A stretch of 64,000 nt of DNA from positions 64,001-128,000 of the forward strand of contig CAWBMP010000002.1 in the NCBI GenBank assembly GCA_963790025.1, in the 5' to 3' direction. The notes under the pieces were generated by a model. That model was not told the DNA's origin, searched no databases, and worked only from the letters and a program-made list of their open reading frames with translations. Positions 4,518 through 33,937 of this stretch are shown here, piece after piece (position 1 is the stretch's first letter; each line of letters opens with the position of its first letter). Source of the DNA: Nitrospirota bacterium. Its GTDB lineage: Bacteria > Nitrospirota > Thermodesulfovibrionia > Thermodesulfovibrionales > Dissulfurispiraceae. The translations under genes were made by a program, and so were the position numbers.

Positions 4518-4806
4518 CTATCGGCCCGACTGCCCTTTCATCTTTATATCAACTGACTCAAGGAATTCAGAGAATTCCTGCTCAGATGCCCCCGGCAACC
4601 TCCTGCACATCTCCTCAATAGCCACTCCATTCCTGAACCCCTTCCTTTATCTGCCGCAGCCCATCAATCACTTCTCTCTCTGGTGTCCCCCGCCTGATCA
4701 GTTCTCTTCCCATATCTGCAATTGTCATTCTCCGATTTATGGCTACTTCATCGAGACTTTCATACTCATCCTCTGTGAGCCGGATACTTATTACTTTTGT
4801 TCGCAT
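4518..4806 (-). pseudogene. TrwA/MobC-like RHH protein, internally deleted paralog of 27880-28224
   Basis: Close DNA homology to 27880-28224, with a 59-nt deletion between TCCTGA microrepeats that shifts the frame. Confidence 0.8.
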
Positions 4807-4824
4807 AACATACCTCCTTTTTTA

Positions 4825-4986
4825 CAGAGCATGAATGCGAGGCATGGCTGATTTTTGTAATCGGACGTAAACGCCGAAGGAATGATTTATCACATCGGGT
4901 CGGCAGTCAGTAGTGATTACATACTGTGGCAGGCAGGAAGCGCCGGAACTGGCAAGGGAAGTTGCGTTGGGTGTGAATGGTACCAG
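4825..4986 (+). promoter_or_regulatory. Putative oriT (MOB-F-type nic), copy 1
   Basis: TTGCGTTGGGTGT^GA resembles F nic TTTGCGTGGGGTGT^GG; 37-bp block 4950-4986 is identical to 28368-28404. Confidence 0.6.
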
Positions 4987-5051
4987 TGGCTGTTAGTCCT
5001 TTTTAATCAGAGTTTTTTCAGGCACAGGCATACTTCAAAATAAATATCAGC

Positions 5052-7626: not shown

Positions 7627-7786
7627 GGAGACAGGTTGGAGACGTGTTTTCTGGGAATAATATCTTTATTTATCAAGGAGATGAAAAACGGAGGGGGTGA
7701 GATTCGAATAGACCCCCCATTCTCGTATCTATTTGATTTTTTAAGGTTATTATGGCTCTCACAATCTTGGGAGACGGACGGGAGAC
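7627..7786. repeat. att junction A: copy of tRNA-Ser 3' end (7689-7708) flanked by paired GGAGAC arm repeats
   Basis: CGGAGGGGGTGAGATTCGAA identical to 35698-35717; GGAGAC at 7627, 7638, 7770, 7781. Confidence 0.9.
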
Positions 7787-7805
7787 GGATTGGATTTGCT
7801 ATCTT

Positions 7806-8160
7806 TCAGTCTTTCGAACTTTTGCGGTCCTTATGCGATGGAAGCGTGCCCTTCAACAGGCGTTCCTCATATGAGTCTTCTTTCCTGCACCGGTTAATTA
7901 TGGTCGTTTCCTCAAGCGGTGCCCCCATTGTCCAGTAAACCAGTCCGCCATCGTCATAGTAGGTAATGCTTTTCTGATAGAACTTTCCCTCGTATCCGTT
8001 GGCTCGAATGTGGCAAACCAGCAGTACAAAGAGGTTCTCATCTACCAGCTCTCGAACGATATACTCGTGGGGCCATTCTAGCATCGTCTTGGCAAACGTC
8101 CATTGTGAGGAGTCAATGAACTCACGCAGAGCCTTTGTCAACCGAATGGAATTCCCCTTG
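7806..8160 (-). CDS. Hypothetical protein (WTFAKTM..PHEY motif)
   Basis: ORF; start probably TTG 8160 after a GGGGAG RBS rather than 8276. Confidence 0.55.
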
Positions 8161-8184
8161 TTCAAGCTCCCCCTTTTCTCAATC

Positions 8185-8769
8185 CTATATGTCCAGCCTG
8201 TCAGGGAGCCGGTGGAGTGTATGAATACACTTATTACAAGCCACAATGACTGGCTCGGTTTCCCATCGTGGCGCAAGCATCGTCCCTTTATCTGGAATAT
8301 CGCAGAAAGGCGATGGTTGTTGGTAGAGCCAGTTCATTATTGAAGCCTCAAGCCGTTCAAGGATGCGCGGCTGATTTCCGATATCGGAGACGAAAATACG
8401 GAACCCTTCGAGTTGCCTATTGGCCGCGTCAAGGATCATGGTTTTCCTCTTCTCAAATTCTGTGCGCTTCTCTGGAGACCAGCCCCATCCGTGCCATATT
8501 TCCTCTCGTCTACCTTGTTTCATAGCAGCGATATCAAGAACGGTATAGTCCCCACTCATATACTTGATAGTGTGCTCTCGGAAACGAATTGGGACTGGAC
8601 GCCGGGTAATTCCAGCCGCATAGATCAGGTAACCGTTCAGATATTCAACAGTCATCAGGTAAGCTCCGGGATGTTTTGGAATAGATGGCAACTTCGTTGT
8701 GGTCTCGAACTTCGGCCACGCATAAGGGCCAGTCCATACAACATCTATGACGCATTTATCAGACATCAT
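8185..8769 (-). CDS. Putative GIY-YIG-like nuclease
   Basis: PGAYL...IYAAGIT...RFREH...ERLEA spacing resembles the GIY-YIG G-Y/Y-G/R/E pattern. Confidence 0.5.
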   Translation of the reverse strand: MMSDKCVIDVVWTGPYAWPKFETTTKLPSIPKHPGAYLMTVEYLNGYLIYAAGITRRPVPIRFREHTIKYMSGDYTVLDIAAMKQGRREEIWHGWGWSPEKRTEFEKRKTMILDAANRQLEGFRIFVSDIGNQPRILERLEASIMNWLYQQPSPFCDIPDKGTMLAPRWETEPVIVACNKCIHTLHRLPDRLDI

Positions 8770-8798
8770 CCGTTATCCATCTTCTCCGAACCTGGAGT

Positions 8799-9129
8799 TC
8801 ACTCTTTACATCCTGCTTCATCTATATTAACAATCTTGGGGGTATCATTCTTAGCCTGTAATGCATTAAAAACTACCTTTTGAGCAGATATATCAGCAGC
8901 GGCATAAATCATTGTGGTACGGATATCCGTATGATTAAGCACTTTCTGTATCGCCGCCACCGGCGCTCCTGGGGCATCCGCAAAAGGCAACACGGCGATT
9001 GTGTCATATTTTGGAGAGTCGTTGGAACCTACATATGGACTAACAGTCGGGTATAGTGTTCTCCGGGATTGGTGCACACATGAGACCAGAACCAAAACCA
9101 GTAAAAACAAACGATATAGCCTTTCGCAT
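8799..9129 (-). pseudogene. Chimeric remnant: lipoprotein N-terminus fused to tyrosine-integrase C-terminus
   Basis: LVSC lipobox and IAVLPF, then AAIQKVLNHTDIRTTMIY homologous to AIQGVLGHTDIRTTMENY of 18956-20338; ATG 9129 is out of frame. Confidence 0.75.
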
Positions 9130-9140
9130 ACTGATCCTCC

Positions 9141-10376
9141 TTATCGCCTTGTCTCATAGCTTGCATCCACTTCTCGAGGTGAGAAATCTATTATCCGGAA
9201 TCCCTTCTGCCCCATGCTGTTAGCCAGATAAACTGTATTCTCCGGATAATCGACAATAAAAACACCAATACCTTTTTCGTCTACGTTCGTTACCCATGCT
9301 ATATTTTGGAGGATATCCTTGACGGCAAAATTGGAGTTCAGGTCAGTAACGCCTTCTACCCTGACTTTGACCTTCTTTGTGATCTCCTTTATGTATAAAC
9401 TTAGCTTATCCAAGACAACAGGGGTAAATTTTTCGGAAAGTGCTTTAAGCCCCTTTGCTGTTGCATCCTCGACATTGTTGGCCATGCCTTTTTCTTCCAT
9501 GAAATCCGCTGCCAGGATTTTCACCTTGCCGGGGCCTTCCTTAGTCACTATCCGATAGGTCAACCTGACAGTCACATTATTGAATGGCATGGAGAGGCCG
9601 TAGCCGATATCCTCTCCTTTTCGCGTCGAAACCGTGTAATCTATTTTCCCTATAACAAGCACGTTCGATAAAAACTTATACATAAGACTTCTGACTGACA
9701 GGAAGCTGTTGCCCTTTATCGCTTTCTCTATTTCGCGCGCATCGGCTGCGTGTGTAGGCGCAATATCGTTAACCGTATAGCCGGCGTCTGCAATCCTGCC
9801 GATAAGGTTTTCGGAAAGAATGTTGGTTTCGTCGTATTCATCACTTGTCAGGATATTGTGTCGCTCTATATTCCTAGTGCCGCTGCTTACAGTGCTGCCA
9901 TATTCCTGAACTACCCTAGGTTTTCTGGTAGGTATAAATACGGCTACGGAATTATTCATGGCCAGAAGAGATGCGGCTTCACGGGCTTTCACCGGTTCGA
10001 CGCAGGCATTGATTTTTACCCACATTACGTCTCTTCTATTTTCCTCTCCGATAAGTTTATAGCTGGAGATTATGCCCCGGATCTGTTTGCTTATCGCATC
10101 GTCAACAAGAACCATATTTTGAACGACACTTTGAGCCTTGACCTCCACACCTGCCACCTGCTCAACAGCTGCCCATTTCGCCCTGGCAATAGCCTCGGTT
10201 TTGGCAGAAGGAATGTCGTCATTATTTATAGCAGCTTCTCCTGTAGAGCCAATGCATTTTGATGAGCATAATCCACTCGATAGAAAGATCGTCATAAAAA
10301 GAACAGAAATTATAATGATTGCTTTAAGAACCATGATTTTCAAGTTGTCTTTCCCCCTATCAGGAATTATCTTCAC
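9141..10376 (-). CDS. Exported protein with FlgT N-terminal-like domain
   Basis: Signal peptide; GEAAI...AKTEAIARAKWAAVEQVAGVEV motif. Confidence 0.6.
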   Translation of the reverse strand: MKIIPDRGKDNLKIMVLKAIIIISVLFMTIFLSSGLCSSKCIGSTGEAAINNDDIPSAKTEAIARAKWAAVEQVAGVEVKAQSVVQNMVLVDDAISKQIRGIISSYKLIGEENRRDVMWVKINACVEPVKAREAASLLAMNNSVAVFIPTRKPRVVQEYGSTVSSGTRNIERHNILTSDEYDETNILSENLIGRIADAGYTVNDIAPTHAADAREIEKAIKGNSFLSVRSLMYKFLSNVLVIGKIDYTVSTRKGEDIGYGLSMPFNNVTVRLTYRIVTKEGPGKVKILAADFMEEKGMANNVEDATAKGLKALSEKFTPVVLDKLSLYIKEITKKVKVRVEGVTDLNSNFAVKDILQNIAWVTNVDEKGIGVFIVDYPENTVYLANSMGQKGFRIIDFSPREVDASYETRR

Positions 10377-10437
10377 CGATGTAATTCTTTCCTTCCCAGC
10401 AATGAAGAATTTCGTGATGCTTACAGATTTTCAGATG

Positions 10438-12042
10438 CTAATAGTTTACAAGTATTCCTAAGTCTCCGTTTGCAGTACTTACATTCTCAACATTTAACCA
10501 GGTCGTACCGGAAAATCGGAAAAAACTTCTATTTCTGTACTTAAGGGTGCGGTCTCTGCATAAAAAGAAAGAGTTGGCACCAGATACCAAAGATAAGGGT
10601 TTTGTTACCCACTCAACGGCAATATTGAAACTTCCGCTCGAAATTGTCGTTGCGGGTATAGTGATTGTTGTTTTCGAACATGAAGTGTGGTTTTTTGAGA
10701 TGATCTGGTTCCGAACAGGGGTAAATATTTCCGTTTCTACAGAAAGATTTTCGCTGAATCCATATAAATTAAACAGCATATCGGAGTCGGTATTGTTTAC
10801 AGCATAAATATCAACCGATGTTATCGTGATCGGATAGGAGGTCGGCGTAAATTTTACCGCCATCGCGGGTCGATGTGTTAAAGACCCATCACCCCATGGA
10901 GATGAACGAGTGCCATTTTCACCCACTGTATAATAGCTGATAGTGCCGCTGATGGATGTATTGCTACTGTCACCTCTGTTTCGCAAGTTTTGCGCAGCAG
11001 CAGTTTCTTTTTTCTGCAAAAGATTGGAGGGTCCGGTTACAGATGAGACAAAAAGCTCCTTATCGAAATCGTAGGTCAACCTATAATGTCCTTCAGTAGT
11101 TTGGGTATCTGCATAGCCACTTGTATTAAATTGATCGATCATGCGTCCCCACTCGCTTTGGCTGATCTTATGCCTTGAGAATATTTCACCAATATCTTTT
11201 TGATACTTTGAAATTTTTGAACTTCTGATTTTACCGTCATCGTCCAGCACAAATAAAAATTTAACATTCTTTTGCCCATCTTGAGAAATCAGCATCCCCC
11301 GGCCTTTATTCTTGTTTAACGAATTCATCTGTCCATCAGCGTTAATGTCAACCCGGGATACGGGAAAAAAATTATCTTTTTCAGCGAGGTCCCGGACACG
11401 TTTGATCACCTCTTCTTTGATAGATTTTCTTTTATCGGGCGATTTTGGTAACCAGTCCCCACCGGCAAGGTCACTAATACTGCCAGCGGGTAAAGATACT
11501 TCTCTTTTCGCGGGGGCTGATGGAGCATTTGCTTTCTGTGGTATCTCTGAAATTTGCTCTCCCAGCAGCTTTTTTGCGAGTCTCTTGCTTGATTTCAACA
11601 GGTCGTCTACTTCGCATTTGCAATCATCTTCTGCTATCATCTCTATCTTTCCTGTCTTTACATTTATAAGCGACAAAGAGAGATAATACGTCTTGCCGAG
11701 CATACTCACAGAACCAGCAACTATCTTACCAACTCCAAGAAGCTGCCCGGCCTCAACTATGCATTGCCCCGATACACAGCCCGACATCTGGAATTTCTGT
11801 TCACCCAATATTTTATTCATATTTCCACGGTCTATTACTTCATACTTGTTGGACAGAACAAGCTCAAGCCTTATACTTTCAGTAAGCGGATGAGAAATCT
11901 TTTTGTCCACATCAACTGCTTCAAGATCAAAGACAGCGATATAATTGTCCATCCTTTTGGCGGGTTTGTCTTCAGCATAAACAGCACCTGTGAAAATAAC
12001 TAGGAATAGCACCAAAAATGTCAAAAGCTTACGCATCGCCAT
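10438..12042 (-). CDS. Exported protein with CsgG/TolB_N-like N-terminal domain
   Basis: Signal peptide; IAVFDL...YEVIDR...GQLLGVGKIVAGSV; beta-rich C-terminus. Confidence 0.6.
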   Translation of the reverse strand: MAMRKLLTFLVLFLVIFTGAVYAEDKPAKRMDNYIAVFDLEAVDVDKKISHPLTESIRLELVLSNKYEVIDRGNMNKILGEQKFQMSGCVSGQCIVEAGQLLGVGKIVAGSVSMLGKTYYLSLSLINVKTGKIEMIAEDDCKCEVDDLLKSSKRLAKKLLGEQISEIPQKANAPSAPAKREVSLPAGSISDLAGGDWLPKSPDKRKSIKEEVIKRVRDLAEKDNFFPVSRVDINADGQMNSLNKNKGRGMLISQDGQKNVKFLFVLDDDGKIRSSKISKYQKDIGEIFSRHKISQSEWGRMIDQFNTSGYADTQTTEGHYRLTYDFDKELFVSSVTGPSNLLQKKETAAAQNLRNRGDSSNTSISGTISYYTVGENGTRSSPWGDGSLTHRPAMAVKFTPTSYPITITSVDIYAVNNTDSDMLFNLYGFSENLSVETEIFTPVRNQIISKNHTSCSKTTITIPATTISSGSFNIAVEWVTKPLSLVSGANSFFLCRDRTLKYRNRSFFRFSGTTWLNVENVSTANGDLGILVNY

Positions 12043-12112
12043 ATTCTCTCCTTCGTCTCGCCGTCAGGAAGTATCATTGTCGGCGTCCCGATGATTCCCA
12101 TCGAATGTTCTC

Positions 12113-12622
12113 CTACTTAAAAAGCCTGGCAGCTTTATCTCTAATCACCTTGCCGATATTCGGCAGTTCGCCTCTTATGATGTCTTTCACTTTGCTATCA
12201 CTACCTATGAAAACAGTCAGGGGCAAGCCAATTACGCCATAATTCTGACCTACCTTGCCGTACGGGTCACTGAGGATAACAGGGTTGTTTACCTTCAGAG
12301 CATCGAGCATCCCGCTGATCGCATCAAAATCCTCTCTATACCCTATTATCACTACCTTTACGCCTTTCTTCTCAAACTCGGGTACGAGAGAATTCAATAC
12401 AGGAAGTTCATCCTTGCAGGGCACGCAGGTGGGGGCAAAGAAATTGACGATAACACCCGTGACCGCCTTTTTCTTCTTAGCTCCGATATAATCGCTCAGA
12501 TAGAAAAAGGAACCATTGCTGTCTCTAAGCGAAAACAGCGGTGCGTCGTCGTTTATCTTGAGTGCTAATGAGGTGGATGCAGAAAGCAGCAAGAGACAGA
12601 GAAATAGAAGAATGGTTTTCAT
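12113..12622 (-). CDS. TlpA-family thiol-disulfide oxidoreductase
   Basis: APLFSL, VNFFAPTCVPCKDELP, GLP motifs. Confidence 0.85.
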   Translation of the reverse strand: MKTILLFLCLLLLSASTSLALKINDDAPLFSLRDSNGSFFYLSDYIGAKKKKAVTGVIVNFFAPTCVPCKDELPVLNSLVPEFEKKGVKVVIIGYREDFDAISGMLDALKVNNPVILSDPYGKVGQNYGVIGLPLTVFIGSDSKVKDIIRGELPNIGKVIRDKAARLFK

Positions 12623-12785
12623 AGAATAAACAATACTATATCCAACTGCACCGACGCAAGGTATTTTTCACACTTTTTTTAGGCTGGATTCACTTTTTTA
12701 GGTGGGCGACAGGACGAGGCCGACATGCTGAATCATCCTATCGGCAACCCTGAATCCGGCGGCAAGAATAGCTGAATGAATGTTT

Positions 12786-12996
12786 GTCTCCGGAGACGTG
12801 TTGGAGACAGTTTTATGTTGAGGCAGTTTCTTTATTTATCAACGAGTTGTGAAAGTGGCTATTTTGTAATTCCTTTATTTATCAAGTAGATGAAAAACGG
12901 AGGGGGTGAGATTCGAATAGAACGGAGCCGACTGCAACTGTTTGATTTCTAAAGCACTTCCACTCGGTAAAACGCCATTGGAGACAGAGTGGAGAC
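12786..12996. repeat. att junction B: copy of tRNA-Ser 3' end (12898-12917) with GGAGAC arm repeats and IHF boxes
   Basis: Core identical to 35698-35717; GGAGAC at 12792, 12803, 12980, 12991; WATCAAN4TTR matches at 12837-12849 (+) and 12935-12947 (-). Confidence 0.9.
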
Positions 12997-13013: not shown

Positions 13014-14807
13014 TTAATTAAGATGGCCTACTGCATCATTGGAATATAAAGAAGGGTTAATAATAAAATCTATAGAGCTGCCACATTTTGTTTTATCAAG
13101 AATTGTCCCAAGTCCACAGCGAACACCCTTAGAATTATAGAACCTCCCTGCACTGGCATAGATTTTTACGGTCTCCAATTCCCTTTTAAGCCCATTCCAC
13201 GCAGCCGTCCACGTCATCACTGAGTCTGTTGTGTGCGGGTGCTGGAACACAATCTCTGGCCTCTCTGCTCTTGCTATACCATGAAAATCCTTATTAACTC
13301 TTGCACGCCATCCTTTTGCATTTCCAGACCGAGGATTAAATACCGTCAAATCGTGGCACCCTAAAATCATAACTTTCCCGATGCTATCAATTTCAACAAA
13401 ATGGGATTTCAAATCGGCGAAGCGTACAAGTCCATTCTGTTGATTGGGGGTAGGATATGATTTCCCAATCCAATGAATTGTACCGCTTTTGATGTCAATT
13501 AAAGCCACCAATTCAATATGGAGTTGTCCTATGTAGTTCTGGGTCGTCGATATTTTTTCCTTAAAAGAATCTATGCCAATGGTTACAAAGCGAGTAAACT
13601 TACTCAACTTTATGCTCAATTCTTCAGATAAAATAGCTTTTATGCACTTCTCAGCTTCCAGGATTAGTCTATCTAAAGCCGCCTGGGGTGGATACTTGTT
13701 ATCTCCTACATCCCGCTGTGTCAGCGATGAGGGCCATTCAAATTGAACAAAGCCACCACAAGTAATTAGAAACTGCACTTTTTCCCCTGCTGGCCATTTG
13801 TCGCACACTGCCTCAAGAAGCCTTTTAGCTGTTTTTGAATCTCCGGACCACTCTCCAGCGATTATTACTCTTGCAAAAAAAGGATTGGGGTCTACCTTTA
13901 TTTCAATGCTTGGGCTTTCATTCTTTCCTTTGAGAATTGCCTCGAATGACTCGACATCTGAGGGATTATCGGGATCCATATGGCACCATACATAATCTTT
14001 GGAGAATAACCTTATGGTCGGCTTCAATCCTACCATGACAGGGAGGAAATCCCTAAGAGTATCGTACCATGCGCGCTGCTCATCTCTAAATATCGGAGTA
14101 TTATCTTTCGCATTAATCTGCTGACAAAGAGATAACCATTTAGTCCTGTCAAAATTAATATCGAGGCCATTTGGGTAACAACGCAGAGCTATCTCCCTTG
14201 CCCTTGTGAAATGTTGTGACTCGTCGAACTCAACAATGAATCCGGGGTCGGGAATAAAGAAATCACAGTTCGGAAGAGTTTCAGTCTTTACAAATAGTTT
14301 GTGTCCTCGATAATCTTGAAGACATTCATAAATTCTCCGAATATCTGTAACATATCGTGTAGTCGCAAAAACCTCAGAAGAGGTACCGATATTAAATTTA
14401 TATTGAGTTTCTACTCTTCCATAAATCTTTCTGAGAAAGTTTTCTACAGTTTTTTTGCAGTCAGGACATCTTTCATTATGATATGGCATTTTTGTCATCG
14501 GCTTCTCACGATGGCTGCGCATGTGGGCGGCTCTGCCAACAGATACAGCCGCCATATTTTCTATATCGAAGCCTAGCGCTGTAAGAAAATTATTTGTCTC
14601 TCTTCCCCCATTAAAATATAACGTATCTAGCTCGCTTCCATTGGCAAACTTATTTGCCAGAGAAATAATGTATTTTGGCGGATAAGAGCGTCCATTGAAC
14701 TGCATTCGGTATTTTTTTGATGCATGCCTACTGGGGATTTGGCTTTGTTCCACCTCCTCAATTGCTCTTAAAATATGAGCGCGCGTTATATTATCGGGAA
14801 TAGGCAT
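13014..14807 (-). CDS. Multidomain protein: McrA/McrB-type N-terminal domain, CxxC, PD-(D/E)xK-like nuclease, nitrilase-like C-terminus
   Basis: YPPKYIISLA...FNGG..TNNFL..LGF; CPDC; CDFFIP...IVEFDESQHF...QRAWYD; GKSYP...ILGCHDL. Confidence 0.6.
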   Translation of the reverse strand: MPIPDNITRAHILRAIEEVEQSQIPSRHASKKYRMQFNGRSYPPKYIISLANKFANGSELDTLYFNGGRETNNFLTALGFDIENMAAVSVGRAAHMRSHREKPMTKMPYHNERCPDCKKTVENFLRKIYGRVETQYKFNIGTSSEVFATTRYVTDIRRIYECLQDYRGHKLFVKTETLPNCDFFIPDPGFIVEFDESQHFTRAREIALRCYPNGLDINFDRTKWLSLCQQINAKDNTPIFRDEQRAWYDTLRDFLPVMVGLKPTIRLFSKDYVWCHMDPDNPSDVESFEAILKGKNESPSIEIKVDPNPFFARVIIAGEWSGDSKTAKRLLEAVCDKWPAGEKVQFLITCGGFVQFEWPSSLTQRDVGDNKYPPQAALDRLILEAEKCIKAILSEELSIKLSKFTRFVTIGIDSFKEKISTTQNYIGQLHIELVALIDIKSGTIHWIGKSYPTPNQQNGLVRFADLKSHFVEIDSIGKVMILGCHDLTVFNPRSGNAKGWRARVNKDFHGIARAERPEIVFQHPHTTDSVMTWTAAWNGLKRELETVKIYASAGRFYNSKGVRCGLGTILDKTKCGSSIDFIINPSLYSNDAVGHLN

Positions 14808-14874: not shown

Positions 14875-15810
14875 TTATGAATTCTTTTTTATGAGCCAGT
14901 CAGACAGTCCAGAACTTACCACAAGATCAGCAAGCTGTTCTACAAATATCAAATGTATATTATTCTTAGCTGATATCTTCAGTAGTGTTTTGTCAGGCGT
15001 GTGAACAATGTAAAAGAGTTTGGTGAAATCCTTTGTCTGACTGAATCTATTACTGTAATCCTTAAACTCTTTGGCCGTTGAGGAGGATTTTACCTGAACG
15101 AAAATCTTTTCTTTGGTTACCGGAGATATCAAATCAAGATCCAGGTCTTTTTCAGTCTTACCAAGGACACTAACTCTCTGCCAACCGGCATTAGAAAATA
15201 CGAGGTCAACGAGCAATTCGAAATCCTTGGGGGTAAGTTGCTGAATGAGGGGAACAAAATTGTTTTTGAGTGCCTCAAGAGCCTGTTCTGCCTTTACCAC
15301 TTCTATCGGCTTCTTGCCGTTGATCTTGTTGATTATATATTGCTCATCAACAGAACAGATTGTCCCCTGGAATCTTCGAACCTTTGAGAAATTGCCGCTT
15401 ATAGAATCAATTGATAGAGGAGAGCCGTGGATGTCGGTATCGTGCCACTGTCCTATTACCTTTCGTATTTTACTTCCGTCAGATAGTCTTTTAACCCTTT
15501 TTTCGGCAAAGCACCACCATAACCTATTAGCATAAAAAGTAACCCAGAGGGTGTTTTCGTCTGACTCGTAAAAATGCCGTATTTCATTTTTTATCTCGGT
15601 GGCTTTCCCCTTTATCTTGCCTTTATTTTTAAGATAAAAGTCGCGTATCTTTTCCCAGTCACCATTAAGGCAATCCGCATGGTCTGAAGATGCGAAACCA
15701 AGCCTAATTGTATTGTCCTTGGTAATACAATCCTGCTCCCATCGACCTCCGGAGCCCAATTTGATAAAAAAAGCCTTGTTTGGATTAATAGTTGTCATTG
15801 ACGGCACCAT
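14875..15810 (-). CDS. Mrr-like (type IV) restriction endonuclease
   Basis: LTPKDFELLVDLVF..GW...DLDL...FVQVKS (D..QxK). Confidence 0.75.
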   Translation of the reverse strand: MVPSMTTINPNKAFFIKLGSGGRWEQDCITKDNTIRLGFASSDHADCLNGDWEKIRDFYLKNKGKIKGKATEIKNEIRHFYESDENTLWVTFYANRLWWCFAEKRVKRLSDGSKIRKVIGQWHDTDIHGSPLSIDSISGNFSKVRRFQGTICSVDEQYIINKINGKKPIEVVKAEQALEALKNNFVPLIQQLTPKDFELLVDLVFSNAGWQRVSVLGKTEKDLDLDLISPVTKEKIFVQVKSSSTAKEFKDYSNRFSQTKDFTKLFYIVHTPDKTLLKISAKNNIHLIFVEQLADLVVSSGLSDWLIKKNS

Positions 15811-15816
15811 TGTCCT

Positions 15817-16347
15817 TCATAATTCTCTTCTAACTTTTAAATCAAACAACAATTCCAGCAACTCTCCCATCCCAGTTAATTTTCTAAATTGACTTTTGGG
15901 AATTTCACGGATCGCTGGCCGCTCTTTCTTTTCGCCAAGAGCATTCGCTTTCGTATGTTTAGCTATCTTGAAATGATTTAATGAGGGTAGCGGCTTGCCT
16001 GCAGCATCGCCATAGTAGAGATACTTCAAGCTCATTCTGTGGCTTTCTGAAGATTCATGTCGAATTATCCATACCACACAACTGCTTGGTTTCTGAGCCA
16101 ACGCTGTATTAACCTTTTGTGAAGCTGTCTTGCCCTCCGCGCGAGAATTTTTAAGTTGAACATGCCTCAATATATTATTGCATTCAAGGACCAGATCATA
16201 TCCTGAACTATCGATTTCAGAACGCAAAACCTCTACTGTTGATCCGTAGCTAAACCACGCTTCCTGCAGGAGTTCCGAAATGAAGACATGTTCCACGAGC
16301 TGTTCATAAAAGCCCGATTTTACTGAACATAAAGTTTGCTCGTTCAC
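15817..16347 (-). CDS. PD-(D/E)xK nuclease-family protein
   Basis: E...IDSSGYDLV...HVQLK; GTG start with GGAGG RBS. Confidence 0.6.
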   Translation of the reverse strand: MNEQTLCSVKSGFYEQLVEHVFISELLQEAWFSYGSTVEVLRSEIDSSGYDLVLECNNILRHVQLKNSRAEGKTASQKVNTALAQKPSSCVVWIIRHESSESHRMSLKYLYYGDAAGKPLPSLNHFKIAKHTKANALGEKKERPAIREIPKSQFRKLTGMGELLELLFDLKVRREL

Positions 16348-16476
16348 AATTCCACCTCCATTGGGGATAGAGCAAAGTTATATATATGGAATAATAGAAA
16401 AATGAAAGGGTTCCAGCTGATCTTGCGGCAGAAAGTTCACGATCTAAAGAGCGTCGTTGAATCAGCCTTTTTTTCG

Positions 16477-17226
16477 CTACCATATTAATTTGTCTTCCGG
16501 CCAATCCTCGTCAAAACTTGAAAAGATAGCCGCATCCATTACACAAGGGAAAATGTCACATGCATCACAAATTCTTTGGAAGCCGTCCAAAACAAAATTA
16601 TAATAATTCTTATCCGACAATGACGTTGCCGACAATTTAATAGGGAAACCGAAATCGGTCAGCCATTTTGTAATTCTGCTATCAATTGGAATCTCAAACC
16701 GCGTAAGACCGAGAGATTGCAGTAAATTTCTGGACTGCTTGGGACCAAAACCTTTCAGGCTGTCAATAATAATCTCAGCAGATTTTCTTTCTGTTTCAGT
16801 CGTCTGATGCCTAGTCATATCTTCAACTATTCCATGTACGATGTCCCATCCCCCATTTTCTAACCACTTACAGTTGACCTTAACCTCTTCGCCAATAGTT
16901 TTGCCTCTTCTCAATCCTCCGAATGCCGTTATAGTTTTTTCTACAGTATTTTGCAGATCGATAGATCCCATGCATTTCGAATAATTCAAGGGAAACGGAG
17001 CTGTGCAAATAAACTTTGTCACGGGACTATTTGGGCCAGACCGTTGTTGAGTAGTGATTAGGCATGAAATCATGGCTTCCCAGAAAAGTTCTTTGGAAAA
17101 TGGAGGAAGGACTTTATTAACATTCCGTTTGATTCGATTTATAACAAAGGCTTTGTTTTTTTGAATCTCGTAAAATGATTTAACCTTTTGAATATCGTTA
17201 TCCTCAATTTGCCAGACTATTTGCAT
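16477..17226 (-). CDS. HhH-GPD DNA glycosylase/AP lyase, OGG-like
   Basis: HhH LKGFGPKQSRNLL followed by IPIDSRI; no FeS cysteine cluster. Confidence 0.65.
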   Translation of the reverse strand: MQIVWQIEDNDIQKVKSFYEIQKNKAFVINRIKRNVNKVLPPFSKELFWEAMISCLITTQQRSGPNSPVTKFICTAPFPLNYSKCMGSIDLQNTVEKTITAFGGLRRGKTIGEEVKVNCKWLENGGWDIVHGIVEDMTRHQTTETERKSAEIIIDSLKGFGPKQSRNLLQSLGLTRFEIPIDSRITKWLTDFGFPIKLSATSLSDKNYYNFVLDGFQRICDACDIFPCVMDAAIFSSFDEDWPEDKLIW

Positions 17227-17394
17227 AGGTTCCTTTGTGTATAGCCTATATTATTTTTTTTGTATTCGTATAGCACGCTGCTTACTAGTACCGCCTTTGC
17301 CGCGCCGTCGACCAGATAAACTCCGCCGACTATTTTAACAATTCCCATTGCCTTGGTGTGTCACTATTATAGCCCTGCCATTTCCAAATAAGAT

Positions 17395-18861
17395 TTATGC
17401 TTCCTTAAATAATCCATCGAATAAATGATTGTATTTTTCAAGGTACCTGATTTCTGTAACCGGTGCACATCTGTCAATCATGTGAGTGAATTCCTTTCCC
17501 TCAGCGATTTGGGCACTCGCCTCATACTCAATTTTTGTTTCAATGATTTTATTGAAAGCAGCCATATCGTCAGATAGCACCTGCATTAATTTCTCAAATT
17601 CCTCAGTGTCGATAAAGAAATAGTTTGTCAGGTCTTCCAGGCAATCCTTGCACATGCTGCTGACGCGGTCCTTAATTATGGCCTCACCTATATAAAACTT
17701 TTCGAAATGTAGAATAAGCTTAATTATAGTTTTATCTGTTTCACCTATTTCTTTGACTGTATCAGCGATCTGAATGTATGCCTCTTTGAAATTATTTAAA
17801 TACTTATCCAGCTGTGCCATCGACGGATATTCCTCTTTCAGAGCTATTGTCATTAGACAAGATTTTTGCTCAACAACTAAGGTATATCGACCAGCATGAA
17901 TAAGCCAGTCAGCCTTTTTTTTGTCACCTACAGTAATGCGTTCAAATTGTCCTGGATTCAAATAGAATCCGAGCACCTCTTCAATGTATTTTTCATAATA
18001 TTCTCCAAAATTGTTTGTAAATGCTTGCGATTGTATTTTCATGTGCTTATCACGAATTAACCAATAAATACCTTCATAGAATTTCCTTGCCCAAATAAAA
18101 GCATTCGAAATGATATATTTGTTTGTGCTCGTCTTTACAATGGGCTTAAAAAATAAAGGGTTGTTTGGGAAAGATGCACCTCTATAATAATTATAATCGC
18201 CAGTGAAATGACCTATGCAAGATCTAAGATTTTCCTCAGTCAAAACAGGGTAAGATTCCTTCAATTCATCTGATATTGTAAACTTAATCACTGAGGAAAC
18301 CTGTAACACTGAGAAGCCAGCCATCTGCAGTTGAGCAAAGCTCTTTATATCAAATCCGGAAAGCTCAACTAAATCATTGTTTGGCTGTATATGATGCTGA
18401 AAATAATTCCTTGGAATCTCCGATAATAGAATAAAATATCTCAGAAAGTTGTAATACAGCTTACCTCCCCTGATTATCTCCTGATACCAAAATTGCTTTT
18501 GCGTTAGCCCAAGTAATATATGCGCTTTCAAATCCTCGCTCGGGATTTCTTCTTTGCTCTTTGCTGCCAATTCATCCGAAACTTTAGCTGATAGGTTGGC
18601 CAGCTTACAAATGTCTTCAGAAGAAGGCATAAGCGATCTATGGTCGTTTGAACTCTTTATCGCAGCATAAGATAAATCCGCCAGAACCCATGCTGGAATC
18701 CACTGCTCATATTTGCGCTGAAAACCTCCAAGGGGAATATCCCATATTACTTTCTTAAAAAAACCGTTACTTAAGAAAATTTCTCTCGATAGTTCCGCCA
18801 GGCAGTATAAAAGCTCATCCAGTTTGAATTTCTTAATTTCTTTCTCTAATTCTTCTAACAT
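17395..18861 (-). CDS. Large helical protein with C-terminal NERD/PD-(D/E)xK-like nuclease domain
   Basis: FGEYYEKYI...KADWLI...LVVEQKS. Confidence 0.55.
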   Translation of the reverse strand: MLEELEKEIKKFKLDELLYCLAELSREIFLSNGFFKKVIWDIPLGGFQRKYEQWIPAWVLADLSYAAIKSSNDHRSLMPSSEDICKLANLSAKVSDELAAKSKEEIPSEDLKAHILLGLTQKQFWYQEIIRGGKLYYNFLRYFILLSEIPRNYFQHHIQPNNDLVELSGFDIKSFAQLQMAGFSVLQVSSVIKFTISDELKESYPVLTEENLRSCIGHFTGDYNYYRGASFPNNPLFFKPIVKTSTNKYIISNAFIWARKFYEGIYWLIRDKHMKIQSQAFTNNFGEYYEKYIEEVLGFYLNPGQFERITVGDKKKADWLIHAGRYTLVVEQKSCLMTIALKEEYPSMAQLDKYLNNFKEAYIQIADTVKEIGETDKTIIKLILHFEKFYIGEAIIKDRVSSMCKDCLEDLTNYFFIDTEEFEKLMQVLSDDMAAFNKIIETKIEYEASAQIAEGKEFTHMIDRCAPVTEIRYLEKYNHLFDGLFKEA

Positions 18862-18955: not shown

Positions 18956-20338
18956 TTACTTTTTACGGTTGGCTTTATCTACCACCTTGGCTTCAGTATC
19001 CTTTGAACCGAGGGCGGCAAATACAACCATCTGTGCTGTGAGGTCAGTGCAGGCATAGTTTTCCATCGTGGTTCGGATGTCAGTATGCCCCAGCACTCCT
19101 TGAATCGCCTGTATCGGCACTCCGGCTGTGGCCGCCTGTGATGCCACGGAATGCCTTGTGCCGTTCTTAAGTTTTATCTGAACCTCTGCTTGTTTACACG
19201 CTTCATTCCACATATTGTTTACCGGCTTGATGGTGTATGGCCTGCCGGTCCTGGGGTTCAGGAATACATAGGCTTCGGGGAGTTTGTCTGCACACAGGTT
19301 CCTTAACATGGGTATCAATTCAGGGTTGATCATCCGAGGCTTCACCATTCTGGGCTTGGGACATTCTCTGATGATACGGTCTGAAAAGGTTCTGGCAACA
19401 GTGATAATGCCTCTTTCAAAATCAAAGTCTTTCACCTTCAGTGATCGTGCTTCTCCTGGGCGTATCCCCTGTCGTGTCAGGAATGTGAATATTGGTCTAT
19501 CAGGCTCGGGTATGAAGGAAAGTATTTTATCCTGGGTTTCCCGATCGGTCCACTTTGGTGGAGCTTTTAGGACTGAGATTCTTGGGAAGCCCTGTGGCTT
19601 TGTCTTTATAAACTCAAATTCGAGCATATCGTTAAAAAAGTTCTCCAGACAGTCCATAATGCCCTTCTGGTATTTGGGTCTATACTTACTGTTCAAGGAC
19701 TCGTAAAACTGCCGGATGTCATAAGAACGGATATTCCTGATATCCTTGTCTCTGAAATACTTCTTGTAAAAGTTCCTGATGTATGTTTTGTATGTTTTCA
19801 AGGTGCTGGGAGCCAGGTTATCCCGCTCTTTTCCATTTATCCATTCCTGTATCCGGGTTGAGAAGTAATATTTCGCCAGTTCGGCCTTCAAATAATCTTT
19901 CGGGTCGAAGGTATGTTTTTCAATTTCAGCTTCCATGCTTGAAAGGAGGTTATAGGCTCTCTGGAATGTATCGAGCGGCTGCCCCTGTTTGTCGCTAAAG
20001 AACCGTTGACGAGAGCCGTTCCAGCTAAGGTCAACATAGAAGTGTTTGGGGACGGTTTTATGTTTTGGGCAGATAAAGCCGTTCCTGCCTATAAGCATAA
20101 AAGGTCCATCGCATTTGGGGCATCTGCCCTTCGCCCTTATAGCTCCTGCCATGTCTAATCCTTCATTGACAAGTCCTAAAATGTTCTGAATAGCCTCAAG
20201 GCTATCCTCTGTCAACGCCCTTTTTTTCTTTCTCTGTACAGGACCATAGACCAGTTTATCGGGATCAGTCAAGCCTTGGATGCCGGTAGTTTGAGTCTTC
20301 TCCGGCTCATTGTTTTTCACTGTTTTTACAGACTTCAT
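18956..20338 (-). CDS. Tyrosine recombinase/integrase with N-terminal Zn-ribbon
   Basis: GIRPGEA, TRHS, LGHTDIRTTMENY catalytic motifs; CPKC...CPKH; alternative start at 20152. Confidence 0.92.
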   Translation of the reverse strand: MKSVKTVKNNEPEKTQTTGIQGLTDPDKLVYGPVQRKKKRALTEDSLEAIQNILGLVNEGLDMAGAIRAKGRCPKCDGPFMLIGRNGFICPKHKTVPKHFYVDLSWNGSRQRFFSDKQGQPLDTFQRAYNLLSSMEAEIEKHTFDPKDYLKAELAKYYFSTRIQEWINGKERDNLAPSTLKTYKTYIRNFYKKYFRDKDIRNIRSYDIRQFYESLNSKYRPKYQKGIMDCLENFFNDMLEFEFIKTKPQGFPRISVLKAPPKWTDRETQDKILSFIPEPDRPIFTFLTRQGIRPGEARSLKVKDFDFERGIITVARTFSDRIIRECPKPRMVKPRMINPELIPMLRNLCADKLPEAYVFLNPRTGRPYTIKPVNNMWNEACKQAEVQIKLKNGTRHSVASQAATAGVPIQAIQGVLGHTDIRTTMENYACTDLTAQMVVFAALGSKDTEAKVVDKANRKK

Positions 20339-20541: not shown

Positions 20542-22354
20542 CTACCACCTGATTTCACCTATTTCAGGCACCTCATCCTTGCCATAATCGACTCTATCCT
20601 TGTTCCCGGGGCCTCGCTTTTTCTTATTCACATTGACCACTTCTTTTTGTATTTCTACCTGTTGTTTTATGATGTTCTCCATGAGAAAGTCAGACTTTAA
20701 GAGAAATGATTCATTTCTGTCCCGATATGATTTATAGGCGAGTTTTGTCTTAGTAATATCGTAATTGGCTATCTTTACAAGGCATTCCAAGTCCCGGAGG
20801 CTCATAATGTCGGAGGGGAGGATAAGTCTTTCTGTTTTTCTTCTTTTGGTCTGGGAGTAGCCGTCTTTCGTGTGGGACACCCCATCGGAATAGGTTTCCT
20901 CCGTCTCCCAAAATTCCGTCTCACCTATCTTTCGGGATAGAAAATCAGCGGTAGTCGGGTCGGCAACCGAAAACAGAACGCTGTTCCCACAGGCGTTAAC
21001 AATTGCCTGGCGCAGCTGCTCGCTATAAATCTTATCCAGCTGCCCGATATCCTGAATACCCAGCCAGCAGGAGCCGCCCTTAGATCGAGAGAGCGTTAAT
21101 AGCCTCACGATAGTTGAAAGCTTCTGGAGAGTGCCCAGTTCATCCAGAAAAAAGAATATCCGCCGGTGGTAGTCATCTTTCATCGACAGGAGCCTTCTAC
21201 CCATAAGGTCGATAAAGAGGGACAGGATAGGCTTTAGTGTATCCTGCACATCAGCATAATTTGTTACGAATATCCACCCCTTCCCTCTTTCAAGCCAGTC
21301 AACTATTGAAAAGGATACCATCCAACTTCGACATATATTCAAAACTCTTCGTGAACTGCATAAGAACAGAAAACACTGACAGTGCCTGCTTGCTGGTGGG
21401 ATCCTCTATATACCTGCACCCTCTTTGCCCTCCGACAGTATGATTCATCCTTTCGGCAATATCTATGCCGGGGGCCGTGATTTCTTTCCAGATGTCGGCA
21501 TTGGATTTAGCTCCCCCCTGGTAAAGGTAGTGCAGAATACCGGCAAACACATCCCGGGCGGCATCGTTCCAAAAAGGATCTCCCATTAGAGCTTGAGGTA
21601 TCAGGCTGTGCGCGATGGCGTCGATATCCATGGCTGTGGTGATTTCATTAAAAATGCTCCAGCCCAGGCAGCGCCGGTCCAGAGGATTGAATAAGATGTC
21701 CGTATCCGGATTATAAAACCGGCTTACATAGTCCCCTTTGAAGTCATACACGATACCACGTTCACCTCGCTCTTTGAGCCTCTCCAGCACTTGGGACAGA
21801 AAAACCGTCTTACCGACGCCGGGCCGTCCAACAATAAAAGCATGTTTTGGCTCTGCCGATACCGGCAACCTGACTTCTCCAAGAGGCAGGGCTGCTTTCT
21901 CCTTATCTTTTTTAATTTGCTTCATTACCTCACGTTCAGTGATCAGGCTGGCTCCACGTTCATATTTCCGCTTCCTCTGCTTAACCGCTCGGAATTTGAA
22001 TATTCCAATAGCAAGGGGATAGAAAATATATACCACCCCGCACAGGAGGAAAATCCGCTTCATCCTATTACAATATTCATCCGCATAGGGAGCAACCACT
22101 TCACGCAATTTGCCTGCTGTCATGTGATATTCGGCACCGGATTCTCCTACAAGAGACATTTTGTAACTGTCTGGGACAAACTGAGCGAAGAGATATTTGA
22201 AGGAAATGTTTGTTTCTGTCCTGTATACAACCAGCCCCATAACCATGAATACTGATATATGAGCCATCACGAGTAACAACATCGTGTATAGGTGCATCTT
22301 CGCATTTAGCCTGACTGCATTCCACCAGAGTCCGAAGCCCTTGTATGATTCCAT
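20542..22354 (-). pseudogene. Type IV coupling protein (TrwB/TraD family), frameshifted near 21316
   Basis: Two TM segments, Walker A GRPGVGKT, YDFKGD, NPLDRRC, FW..AAR, LDELGTL, SRSKGG; span 1813 nt = 3n+1. Confidence 0.88.
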
Positions 22355-27612: not shown

Positions 27613-27778
27613 CGTTCTCTTCAATTTTAAGCAGCTTCGCTATATCATCTTTCCTTAAATCCCGGGAATGGAGGATCTTTTTAAGGGATTCGAGGTGCCC
27701 TTCATTTAGAAAGCCGGTTACTTCTAACTCTTCTATGAACTTATTTATTACTTGCTTGGATACAGATGTTAAAGCCAT
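27599..27778 (-). CDS. 59-aa hypothetical protein overlapping the ATPase start (not in ORF track)
   Basis: MALTSVSKQVINKFIEELE...KLLKIEENDENS; GGAG RBS; stop lies just inside the ATPase gene. Confidence 0.65.
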   Translation of the reverse strand: MALTSVSKQVINKFIEELEVTGFLNEGHLESLKKILHSRDLRKDDIAKLLKIEENDENS

Positions 27779-27879
27779 CTTTTCTTCTCCAAAGAGATGT
27801 TCAGAACGCCTGAAATATTAATTGCTTCAGTATATCTCGTAAGTCTGCTGATACTCAAGGGGAAATCAAATATCATCTA

Positions 27880-28224
27880 CTACTCGGACTGTTCTTTCAC
27901 CTTCTTATCCACTGTCTCAAGGTATTCAGAAAATTCCTGCGCTGATGCCCCCTGCAGTCTCCTGAACATCTCCTCAATAGCCACTCCGTTCCTGACGGCG
28001 TAATACAGATTTTTCCTAAGCCCCCTATCCAGCGCCATATCCCTTAACTCCTGAACTCCCTCCATTATCTGCCGTAGCCCGTGAATCACTTCTCTTTCCG
28101 GCACCCCTTGCCTGATGAGTTCCCTTACCATATCCGCAATTGTCATTCTCCTGTTGATGGCAATTTCATCCAAGCGCTCGTATTGATCCTCCGTCAGCCT
28201 TATACTTACCACTTTCGTTCGCAT
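27880..28224 (-). CDS. TrwA/MobC-like ribbon-helix-helix relaxosome accessory protein
   Basis: MRTKVVSIRLTEDQYERL...IADMVRELI; AGGAGG RBS; next to the oriT-like site. Confidence 0.7.
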   Translation of the reverse strand: MRTKVVSIRLTEDQYERLDEIAINRRMTIADMVRELIRQGVPEREVIHGLRQIMEGVQELRDMALDRGLRKNLYYAVRNGVAIEEMFRRLQGASAQEFSEYLETVDKKVKEQSE

Positions 28225-28244
28225 GCTCTGCCTCCTTTTTATGG

Positions 28245-28404
28245 GGCATGAATGCGAGGGCATGGCTGATTTTTGTAATCGGACGCAATCGCCGAAAGGA
28301 TGAATCATCTTTTCGGCGCGGCTGCCGGTGGCGATTACAGAAGGTGGCAGGCGGGCAGTGCCGGGAGTGGCAAGGGAAGTTGCGTTGGGTGTGAATGGTA
28401 CCAG
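28245..28404 (+). promoter_or_regulatory. Putative oriT (MOB-F-type nic at 28392/28393), copy 2
   Basis: TTGCGTTGGGTGT^GA; orientation relative to the RHH and coupling genes matches F/R388. Confidence 0.65.
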
Positions 28405-28768
28405 AGGTCTCAACCGTGGTGAACAATACCCAACGCTCTGATTGTATTTTGTCGGCTATACCGACACATTTCGGGAACAGGTCCAACATTGCCAGAACCT
28501 AAAAATTATGTGAATTGAAAAATCCAATAAATACAGAGCTGTTCTGTTTTACATATATTGATATTATCAGACGTTCGCCTTTGACGACTCCCGTGCCGGG
28601 ACACAAAATCCTGTCCTGAACCGGCATAGTAGGATTATTGTCACTTTGCCACGTTTGAACAAGCAGGAAAGTTCTATAATTCCAGCTTTACTTCTTCATC
28701 TGGCCTCCATGTATCGGCAGCCCCTTAAAGGAAACGCCCGGTTCGCATTCACCCATTACAAAGGAGAA

Positions 28769-29167
28769 ATGACGATGAAGAAAAAGATAAGGTTGACATT
28801 CAATGATAGTAACGACTTCGATGCTGTAATTATGAGCGCTCTATTACCGGGTAGTCTGCGCAGTACTACTATCAAGAGGCTAATGTATGATGCCATTATT
28901 GGCCCCCGGCGAGCCCCCGAAAGGACTCCAGCGAGGCTCCAAAGAGATACTGAAAAGCCCCATTATGAGACATCAGAGCGGCCCCGCCGAGACACTGAAC
29001 AGCCCCAGGGGAAACACACTTCTCTAGATACCAAGAAGAGCACTCTGTCGAGCGTCATGGGGGATTTCCTTGAAGATGAGCCCCTAACACCTCAAGCCGG
29101 GCAACGATTTACAAGCGAAGAGGACAGGAGAATCAATGAGAAATTGAAAAGACTGTCGATAATTTGA
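28769..29167 (+). CDS. Small protein divergent from oriT (StbA-like position)
   Basis: AAGGAG RBS before ATG 28769; N-terminal KKIRLTF beta-strand plus helices; low-complexity linker. Confidence 0.55.
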   Translation: MTMKKKIRLTFNDSNDFDAVIMSALLPGSLRSTTIKRLMYDAIIGPRRAPERTPARLQRDTEKPHYETSERPRRDTEQPQGKHTSLDTKKSTLSSVMGDFLEDEPLTPQAGQRFTSEEDRRINEKLKRLSII

Positions 29168-29238
29168 AATGTTGACCCACACACAGAAGACCTCGCAAAC
29201 GTCGGGCATGATCAGCAACCTATGAGGCACAAGCCGCG

Positions 29239-30027: not shown

Positions 30028-30101
30028 ATACGGCTATCACCTGAAGCAAAGGAACGAGTTACGAGCTAAGAGGACAAGAGAATCCTTGACCTTGCCTCTT
30101 A

Positions 30102-31838: not shown

Positions 31839-31938
31839 TCAGTTCTATTCGCTATCCATTTTAACTAGCACTGTGCTTGCGTAGGCACGGATGTGGTGAA
31901 ATGCGGCCCTGAAAAGGCAGTCTTTCCATCATATTCAA

Positions 31939-32865: not shown

Positions 32866-32867
32866 GC

Positions 32868-33893: not shown

Positions 33894-33937
33894 AGTTATT
33901 TCTCCTTACTCGTATTCTTCCTCATTGTTCCTGCCTT

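Follow-up and report, generated by a model that had tools for sequence, protein, structure and literature searches.

A reading frame on the minus strand (13014..14807) of a 64,000-nucleotide stretch of Nitrospirota bacterium contig CAWBMP010000002.1, referred to here as the window, was found in this study to encode an intact member of a widespread, large and uncharacterised family of three-domain proteins. The protein joins a head domain of the ScoMcrA type, a predicted nuclease-like domain of the Vsr/AbaSI type and a divergent nitrilase-fold domain in a single chain of 597 amino acids (aa). At a probability of about 0.5, we take it to be a type IV-like defence nuclease that acts alone, with the nitrilase-fold domain as its specificity or control module. 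Phages shield their DNA with increasingly elaborate base modifications, and hosts counter with modification-reading enzymes; to our knowledge, the reader folds known so far number only a handful, among them SRA, inactive EndoIII and the sulfur-binding domain (SBD). The family may be a new route by which microbes recognise and destroy foreign DNA. It counts 2281 representatives at E ≤ 1e-3 from both Bacteria and Archaea, and the nitrilase-fold variants that it combines with a nuclease may be a reader or effector fold that is new.

The window had previously been read from its letters without database searches (the sequence-only reading), and the gene had been described there as an unusual fusion with no characterised counterpart. 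This agrees with our literature search, in which no description of the architecture was found in the open literature: no paper was found on DUF7255, or on a nitrilase joined with Vsr, ScoMcrA or modification-dependent restriction, subscription journals being outside the coverage. With the same coverage, the anti-phage literature on nitrilase domains gave only reverse transcriptase (RT)-nitrilase systems, such as Rst_RT-nitrilase-Tm.

The features of the gene, all on the minus strand, are as follows; types B and C denote other C-domains of the family, introduced below.

13014..14807, minus: whole open reading frame (ORF), 597 aa, with head, nuclease-like and nitrilase-fold domains
14547..14801, minus: ScoMcrA_N-type head domain, residues 3-87, with the motifs YPPKY, FNGG and LGF (profile, Foldseek and PF26345)
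14496..14540, minus: flexible linker, residues 90-104 (predicted local distance difference test score, pLDDT, below 50 in both the full and the N-half models)
13923..14495, minus: predicted DUF7255-type, Vsr/PvuRts1I-like PD-(D/E)XK nuclease-like domain, residues 105-295
14454..14468, minus: C114-P-D-C117-K118 at the start of that domain's first helix, invariant in 45 sequences
14208..14264, minus: predicted catalytic and metal-binding residues D182...E193-F-D195-E196-S-Q-H199-F200 (AbaSI alignment and invariance)
14049..14087, minus: helix R241-DEQRAWYDTLR-D253, almost invariant in the alignments
13044..13922, minus: divergent nitrilase-superfamily domain, predicted four-layer alpha-beta-beta-alpha, residues 296-588 (Foldseek and hhalign)
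13752..13763, minus: T349-C350-G-G, predicted site of the nitrilase catalytic Glu, here Cys (hhalign chain through types C and B)
13452..13466, minus: G448-K449-S-Y-P, predicted retained nitrilase Lys (K449 invariant; pairs with RKFHP of type C)
13350..13361, minus: G483-C484-H485-D486, predicted retained nucleophile Cys (C484 and D486 invariant; pairs with CYD of type C)
13233..13241, minus: H523-P-H525, invariant and subfamily-specific His pair (alignments)

Domain organisation and predicted active-site residues

The ORF listing gives one uninterrupted frame of 597 aa with an ATG start, directly 5' of which stands AGGA. All motifs quoted in the sequence-only reading are present in this intact frame and in the order described: YPPKY at residues 42-46, FNGG at 65-68, FLTALGF at 74-80, CPDC at 114-117 and D182...EFDESQHF (193-200) in the N-half, and ITCGG at 348-352, GKSYP at 448-452 and ILGCHDL at 481-487 in the C-domain. 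The residues of these motifs are invariant or almost so in alignments of 23, 45 and 30 relatives, the second consisting of N-halves and the third being the one used for invariance in the C-domain. An AlphaFold2 model of the full chain, built on a 78-row alignment, reached a mean pLDDT of 92.3 and fell below 50 only in residues 90-104, the linker, and in the last nine residues (589-597). A homodimer prediction with residues 105-597 in two copies scored 0.00 against a mark of 0.42. Scans of the protein with Pfam, PADLOC and NCBIfam gave nothing beyond a sub-threshold match to DUF7255, and a search of the PDB with a profile of all 78 sequences returned the ScoMcrA head only, the rest being noise. 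QueE was considered as a relative and dismissed, as its match in a PDB sequence search with the full protein (E 1.3) is at chance level and gives no evidence of a deazaguanine link.

A profile of 45 N-halves aligned the head domain (residues 3-87) with residues 4-97 of ScoMcrA (5zmm_A) at E 3.4e-5, and the best structure match of the N-half model in the PDB by Foldseek was 5zmm_B (E 0.011, prob 1.00). Beyond residues 4-97, 5zmm aligned with neither the N-half nor the 78-sequence profile. PF26345, named ScoMcrA_N in the Atlas, is annotated for the 597-aa protein and for 117 of the 120 listed rows; this is the precomputed annotation of the database, and the Pfam copy that we scanned reported no PF26345. 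The sequence-only reading had likened this domain to those of McrA/McrB-type enzymes, of which the McrA side stands through ScoMcrA, and no link to McrB was found. No SRA or HNH domain was matched by Pfam in the protein. In relatives, the head is absent or swapped for other domains of about 130 aa without a Pfam name, and because it is replaceable or absent it looks like an accessory module. The ScoMcrA head is described as small, flexibly attached and of unknown function (PMC6224610). A hypothetical protein of plasmid NC_015471.1 from Thermococcus barophilus MP (26623-26868) also matches the head (residues 1-83, 39.8% identity, E 4e-10) and no other part of the protein.

The nuclease-like domain follows the linker. 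The sequence-only reading had pointed to a D...EFDE..HF core, and this core proved to match the catalytic set of AbaSI position by position: D182, E193, D195, E196, H199 and F200 pair with the identical D61, E72, D74, E75, H78 and F79 in an N-half profile alignment of residues 153-204 with residues 29-85 of AbaSI (4par), which is itself non-significant (E 0.16). All six residues are invariant in the 45 N-halves. In AbaSI, D61, E72, D74, E75 and H78 are metal-binding and catalytic residues of a Vsr-like PD-(D/E)XK variant, and the mutants D61A, E75A and H78A are inactive while D74A has reduced activity (PMC4081097). One relative (P0168) scored 28.0 bits to DUF7255 against a cut-off of 27, and the language-model neighbours in the Atlas are DUF7255 clusters (0.97), in which 14-26% of the members carry PF23913. 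Structure comparison of the N-half model with the PDB put ScoMcrA, AbaSI and other PD-(D/E)XK proteins at the head of the list, AbaSI (4par_C) being at rank 3 (E 1.1, prob 0.06) alongside PA-N, Cas4 and a phage exonuclease; in BFVD, DUF2726, a restriction endonuclease, DUF559 and a homing endonuclease were on top, with a best E of 0.012. Because of the motif identity and this convergent but weak evidence, residues 105-295 are described here as a predicted Vsr/AbaSI-type nuclease domain, of which the homology is unproven.

Two further features of this domain stand out in the alignments. C275 is invariant and C228 almost so, and together with C114 and C117 they form, from their conservation, a plausible candidate Cys4 metal site; K118, directly after the CxxC, is a possible counterpart of AbaSI Lys23. 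The CxxC segment (residues 102-161, nucleotides about 14325-14504) also matched the metal-binding domains of copper ATPases (2rml, E 7e-4; 1p6t, E 1.5e-3), a match that we set aside as probably a CxxC-plus-helix resemblance and not homology, metal binding being compatible with it.

The C-terminal domain was proposed to have a nitrilase fold, and the predicted structure bears this out. Foldseek with the full AlphaFold2 model gave 97 PDB matches at E ≤ 0.001, and all 26 of those listed belong to the nitrilase superfamily. The best was 3wuy_A (Nit6803), at E 2.8e-6 and a template modelling (TM) score of 0.52 on the target; the others include Nit2, beta-ureidopropionase, N-carbamoylputrescine amidohydrolase, cyanide dihydratase, D-carbamoylase and the glutaminase domain of NAD synthetase. 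The N-half model alone had no nitrilase-superfamily match in Foldseek, and the signal therefore belongs to the C-domain. At the sequence level, no direct link from this C-domain to nitrilases was found by Pfam, by PDB sequence or profile search or by direct hhalign, and PF00795 (CN_hydrolase) was not matched by Pfam even at E ≤ 10. The connection of individual residues runs instead through other members of the family, as described in the next section.

Many polar residues are invariant in this C-domain, namely D413, E432, K449, H469, C484, D486, R493, H523 and H525, and D413, E432, H469, D486, R493, H523 and H525 make up the subfamily's own set. H523 and H525 lie past the strand that follows the Cys, and the order of secondary-structure elements in the model suggests that they may be placed at the pocket.

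Fusion, C-domain variants and spread of the family

The fused form is the norm, and it is no accident of the assembly or of read-through. Among the 119 listed non-self matches, all but three (116) span 92% or more of the query, with 50-61% identity and lengths of 554-735 aa, which contradicts the chance read-through that the sequence-only reading had named as a refuting outcome and bears on its proposed check of whether homologues are fused or split. Of 6848 candidates in a word-indexed protein search, 1186 were relatives at E ≤ 1e-3. When 1.84 billion cluster representatives were searched exhaustively with HMMER, the 2281 matches at E ≤ 1e-3 included 1165 at E ≤ 1e-10, of which 351 reached E ≤ 1e-30. 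Short stand-alone matches exist for both halves, as do Atlas clusters of about 290 aa for the C-domain and about 195 aa for DUF7255.

Genomic loci were scanned with one genome per species, which gave 257 relatives, and 80 loci were retained. The scan was seeded with N-half motifs, the R241-D253 helix serving as the locus search pattern, and is blind to genes that consist of the C-domain only. The full architecture occurs as a single ORF in 26 of the 80 loci (6 archaeal and 20 bacterial), and a hidden Markov model (HMM) of the C-domain places the present C-domain type in 38 of them. In the rest of the loci, other C-termini follow the shared half made up of head and nuclease. Among the 80 loci, two-gene versions with separate N and C frames were seen at three (L012, L032 and L035), all with overlapping or frameshift-like junctions; we read these as genes broken by a frameshift at or close to the boundary of the domains, and not as natural split genes. 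Four loci are truncated (L008, L020, L021 and L027).

The other C-termini fall into distinct types. Type B, in 18 of the 80 loci and in proteins of about 760-780 aa, passes the PF00795 threshold in 9 of the 25 relatives of one scan and in 6 of the 36 of a second; its profile matches the solved nitrilases 2w1v (E 1e-8) and 1f89 (E 1.3e-8), and its motifs FPE, KH and ICHD align with LPE, K-H and ICYD of the yeast protein 1f89. By these sequence comparisons, type B is a predicted canonical CN_hydrolase with an intact Glu-Lys-Cys triad. Fifteen of the type B relatives (L054, L060, L063, L068-L072 and L074-L080) carry an extra conserved C-terminal region of about 150-230 aa (about residues 620-770) without a Pfam match. 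Type C, in at least 13 loci and in proteins of about 565 aa, shows FPGG...GIDG...RKFHP...CYD...LVH, with Gly at the position of the catalytic Glu. Other tails again occur at L051/L059, L057 and L065. Judged from these sequences, the pairing of the nuclease with a nitrilase-fold domain is the rule across the family.

The types can be connected by profile alignment. With hhalign, the present type aligned with type C at E 1.4e-3 over 154 columns, and type C with type B at E 4.7e-5, pairing TCGG with FPGG and FPEG, GIDS with GIDG, GKSYP with RKFHP, and GCHD with CYD. Therefore, K449 and C484 are taken as the predicted nitrilase Lys and Cys, and the Glu is C350 here and Gly in type C. The direct hhalign of this C-domain with type B was non-significant (E 0.28), though the Cys motifs were paired, GCHD meeting ICHD weakly; the type C profile had no match in the PDB (best E 0.75). 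C350 occupies the Glu position invariantly or almost so in the alignments of 23 and 30 relatives. By this chain of alignments, the Glu-Lys-Cys triad is incomplete in the present C-domain, with K449 and C484 kept and the Glu replaced by C350, as the sequence-only reading had noticed when it matched GKSYP and ILGCHDL with the Lys and Cys and found ITCGG where the Glu was expected.

A defence reading weighed against its alternatives

Besides the domain assignments and the recurrent pairing of this nuclease with nitrilase folds, the defence reading is favoured by the stand-alone state of the gene, by its place in an island with other defence-type genes, by a patchy distribution over Bacteria and Archaea and by the precedent of the END nucleases. 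In a scan of 120 ORFs within three genes of the target at 22 related loci, 8 loci had clear defence or toxin-antitoxin neighbours and 4 more had arguable ones; the families at the 8 are MvaI/BcnI restriction-modification with NERD-TOTE, GIY-YIG with SocA, HI1420/Gp49, WYL with Mrr, Mrr, AIPR, NERD-kinase and ResIII. In both AbaSI/PvuRts1I and the present protein, a Vsr-like PD-(D/E)XK variant (predicted in the latter) with the pattern D...E-x-D-E-x-x-H-F lies on the N-terminal side of a single polypeptide that has no partner methyltransferase and ends in a separate C-terminal domain of about 200-300 aa. The C-terminal domain of AbaSI (PDB 4par) is a modified-base reader in a family of type IV enzymes dependent on 5-hydroxymethylcytosine (5hmC) (PMC4081097). 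The layout appears, by analogy, to mirror that of AbaSI, with the Vsr-like cutter first and another domain standing apart at the C-terminal end. The differences are that the C-domain of AbaSI is SRA-like, whereas a predicted nitrilase fold stands here and Pfam finds no SRA; that the ScoMcrA-type head and the CxxC-K motif occur only in the present protein; and that Pfam points to DUF7255 and not to PvuRts1I-like_N, with the similarity to AbaSI below significance. ScoMcrA (PDB 5zmm), a type IV restriction enzyme dependent on phosphorothioate or 5-methylcytosine (PMC6224610), shares the homologous, flexibly attached N-terminal head, but it has SBD, SRA and HNH domains, none of which was matched in the present protein. 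Alike in the proposed logic are the END nucleases, in which a type IIS-like nuclease is combined with an inactive EndoIII domain that senses hypermodified phage DNA, as shown by experiment (PMC12191111). Under the defence reading, both would couple a cleavage domain with a catalytically altered enzyme fold as the sensor, although both halves are unrelated in fold and the function of END is experimental, whereas the present protein is known from sequence.

On this reading, the Vsr/AbaSI-type domain with its full catalytic set would cut DNA, the ScoMcrA-type head on its flexible linker would be an accessory DNA-facing module, and the nitrilase-fold domain, which sits where AbaSI has its SRA reader, would most likely license or specify cleavage; it would bind either some chemical group on foreign DNA that is probably modified, or a small ligand related to it. 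The C-domain, which keeps the Lys and Cys but has Cys in place of the general-base Glu, would most likely not be an ordinary hydrolase. The domain assignments, the residue pattern, the recurrent fusion with its variants and the island context come from the sequence and model data, whereas DNA cleavage, modification dependence and the sensor role are what we infer. The combination of a constant nuclease with diversified nitrilase folds, two of them without the general base, is consistent with a module for specificity or licensing that evolves in an arms race. If it is true, a nitrilase-fold reader of modified DNA would have no known counterpart and would be an enzyme turned immune sensor, for which the intact triad, the change of Glu to Gly and the change of Glu to Cys provide a natural enzyme-to-sensor series. 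If the modification specificity is true, the proteins may also become mapping tools, as AbaSI is for 5hmC.

A more specific version, by analogy with nitrilase chemistry, has the fold acting as a chemical reader of DNA hypermodifications that bear a nitrile, amide or acyl group; 7-cyano- and 7-amido-7-deazaguanine, the examples offered by the sequence-only reading, N6-carbamoylmethyladenine and acylated aminomethyl-pyrimidines would be candidates. Cys484 and Lys449 would hold the side chain of the modification as a nitrilase holds its substrate, with the Glu lost (to Cys350 here and to Gly in type C) the reaction would come to a halt, and binding or a long-lived covalent adduct, in place of turnover, would license the nuclease. 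Type B, with its intact triad, would then be the ancestral 'eraser-cutter' form. We regard this version as unlikely.

Several results weigh against the defence reading. On the side of the nuclease, the protein scores 20.1 bits to PF23913 (DUF7255), below the gathering cut-off of 27 bits; its Atlas similarity to PvuRts1I-like_N is 0.82; the AbaSI alignment is non-significant, as stated; no match of the nuclease-like domain at E ≤ 0.001 was found by Foldseek in the PDB and BFVD; and the matches behind the nuclease assignment are thus individually non-significant. On the side of the C-domain, its many invariant polar residues resemble an active or metal site more than a typical aromatic reader pocket, and the intact triad of type B is easier to reconcile with a working enzyme than with a passive reader. 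The protein is recognised by neither PADLOC nor NCBIfam, it had no match in the phage collection, and in the plasmid collection only its head domain (residues 1-83) was matched. At 10 of the 22 related loci scanned for neighbours, only housekeeping or unnamed ones were seen.

A known use of a nitrilase domain in defence suggests another division of labour. In DRT1, the catalytic activity of the nitrilase is needed for defence, and the nitrilase domains make all contacts within the tetramer (PMC13275509); that domain is the effector and oligomer core there, not a sensor, which also counts against the defence reading as we put it. DRT1/UG5 are the defence proteins that our searches showed to carry a nitrilase-superfamily domain, as is predicted for the present protein, but the partner there is a reverse transcriptase, of which Pfam, PADLOC and NCBIfam found no match here, and the triad of DRT1 is complete whereas the Glu is missing here. 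Transferred to this family, the nitrilase-fold domain would be the effector, the oligomerisation core or both, with a toxic or regulatory output from the nitrilase-derived site or from the assembly, and the nuclease-like domain and head would sense nucleic acid. The intact triad of type B and the many invariant polar residues of the C-domain favour such a role, in addition to the DRT1 precedent. However, the catalytic Glu is missing in the present subfamily and in type C, and the catalytic residues of the nuclease are invariant, because of which the nuclease itself can be argued to be the effector. We consider this arrangement possible but doubtful.

The nitrilase superfamily acts on non-peptide C-N bonds, and a working hydrolase with altered chemistry, using a Cys484-His dyad or a Cys/His metal site in place of the Glu, was also considered. 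Such an 'eraser plus cutter' would remove or convert an amide-, nitrile- or acyl-type DNA modification and so expose the DNA to the fused nuclease. K449, C484, H485, D486, H523 and H525 are invariant or almost so, the Cys350 swap for Glu is (almost) invariant, and the type B triad is complete, all of which would suit a functioning site; but loss of the general-base Glu usually inactivates enzymes of this superfamily. We find it distinctly unlikely. The present C-domain shares with nitrilases (PF00795; Nit6803 3wuy, Nit2 4hg5/2w1v and yeast 1f89) the predicted four-layer sandwich, the order of strands and helices and the Lys and Cys in GK...GCHD; it differs in having no Pfam match, in the change of Glu to Cys350, in its own D413, E432, H469 and HPH (523-525), and in the fusion to a nuclease.

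Vsr is a repair nuclease, and a housekeeping role in DNA repair, in which a Vsr-like nicking endonuclease would work with a lesion-processing amidase outside immunity, would agree with the housekeeping or unnamed neighbours at 10 of the 22 loci and with an Ogg/HhH-like gene two genes away in the window. It is very improbable in view of the patchy distribution over Bacteria and Archaea at 40-57% identity, of the position at the edge of a tRNA-integrated island amid defence genes, and of the split of the C-domain into at least three types, which is typical of conflict genes and not of core repair. An artefactual fusion or a decaying gene without a function of its own is hardly credible at all: the few frameshifted and truncated loci named above could be cited for it, but the ORF is intact, homologues cover the query at nearly full length in 116 of 119 listed cases, the single ORF recurs in 26 of 80 loci, and residue conservation is strong.

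Genomic island and neighbouring genes

The gene stands at the end of an integrated island, whose features in the window are listed here.

12867-12921, no strand assigned: att-type direct repeat that reproduces the 3' part of tRNA-Ser and lies 93 bp past the stop codon of the gene, at the island's outer end
7658-7712 and 35667-35721 (in the tRNA gene): other copies of the tRNA-Ser 3' part, a 55-nt direct repeat
35697-35786, minus: tRNA-Ser(tga) gene
14875-18861, minus: four defence-like genes upstream of the target, with weak matches, none of them a complete known system:
within 14875-18861, minus: Mrr_cat / PADLOC PDC-S02-like, 311 aa
within 14875-18861, minus: PDDEXK_5-like, 176 aa, sub-threshold
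within 14875-18861, minus: Ogg/HhH N-glycosylase-like, 249 aa, sub-threshold
within 14875-18861, minus: GapS1-like, 488 aa, 44 bits against a cut-off of 320
18956-20338: integrase, in the island of about 22.8 kb
20542-21342 and 21299-22354, minus: TrwB/TraD-type coupling protein of a type IV secretion system, split over two overlapping ORFs (profile halves 191-384 and 4-187)
25159-35499, minus: inner island genes, namely an SMC/AAA_13-type ATPase, RHH, NERD, HhH-GPD, HEPN, DndB-like, and a BglII-type endonuclease with an N6_N4 methyltransferase

The tRNA-Ser copies, together with a 27-nt repeat that is also found at 7627, 12980 and 35626, imply two tandem islands integrated at tRNA-Ser, one of about 22.8 kb (12921-35697) and one of about 5.2 kb (7712-12867), and because of the positions of these copies the gene is the outermost of the larger island. 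The split coupling protein is probably what a frameshift has left of a conjugative element. Of the methyltransferases in the window, the one nearest to the target (34546-35499) is paired with the BglII-type endonuclease and lies about 20 kb away; the gene stands alone, without a cognate methyltransferase partner.

The surroundings of the gene are not conserved in the family. No neighbour family is common to more than 5 of the 80 loci, and none of the window's 5 neighbour genes recurs in the 80 related loci. Mrr_cat genes flank the target in the window and at two of the loci (L022 and L023), and the Mrr-like protein of the window has no BLAST match in the loci.

Further repeats and remnants were noticed in the window. 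A 103-aa ORF at 8799-9110 (minus) resembles in its C-terminal half the C-terminus of the integrase at 18956-20338 (HTDIRTTM... motif) and is probably the remnant of a second integrase, that of the smaller island. A stretch of about 460 bp is repeated at 4528-4989 and 27887-28407 with 78-85% identity and a spacing of 23.4 kb, covering the RHH gene at 27880-28413, which suggests that related elements flank the att copies on both sides. A repeat of 37-72 nt occurs at 29100-29171, 30053-30089 and 31070-31141, between three consecutive minus-strand genes that include those for NERD and HhH-GPD.

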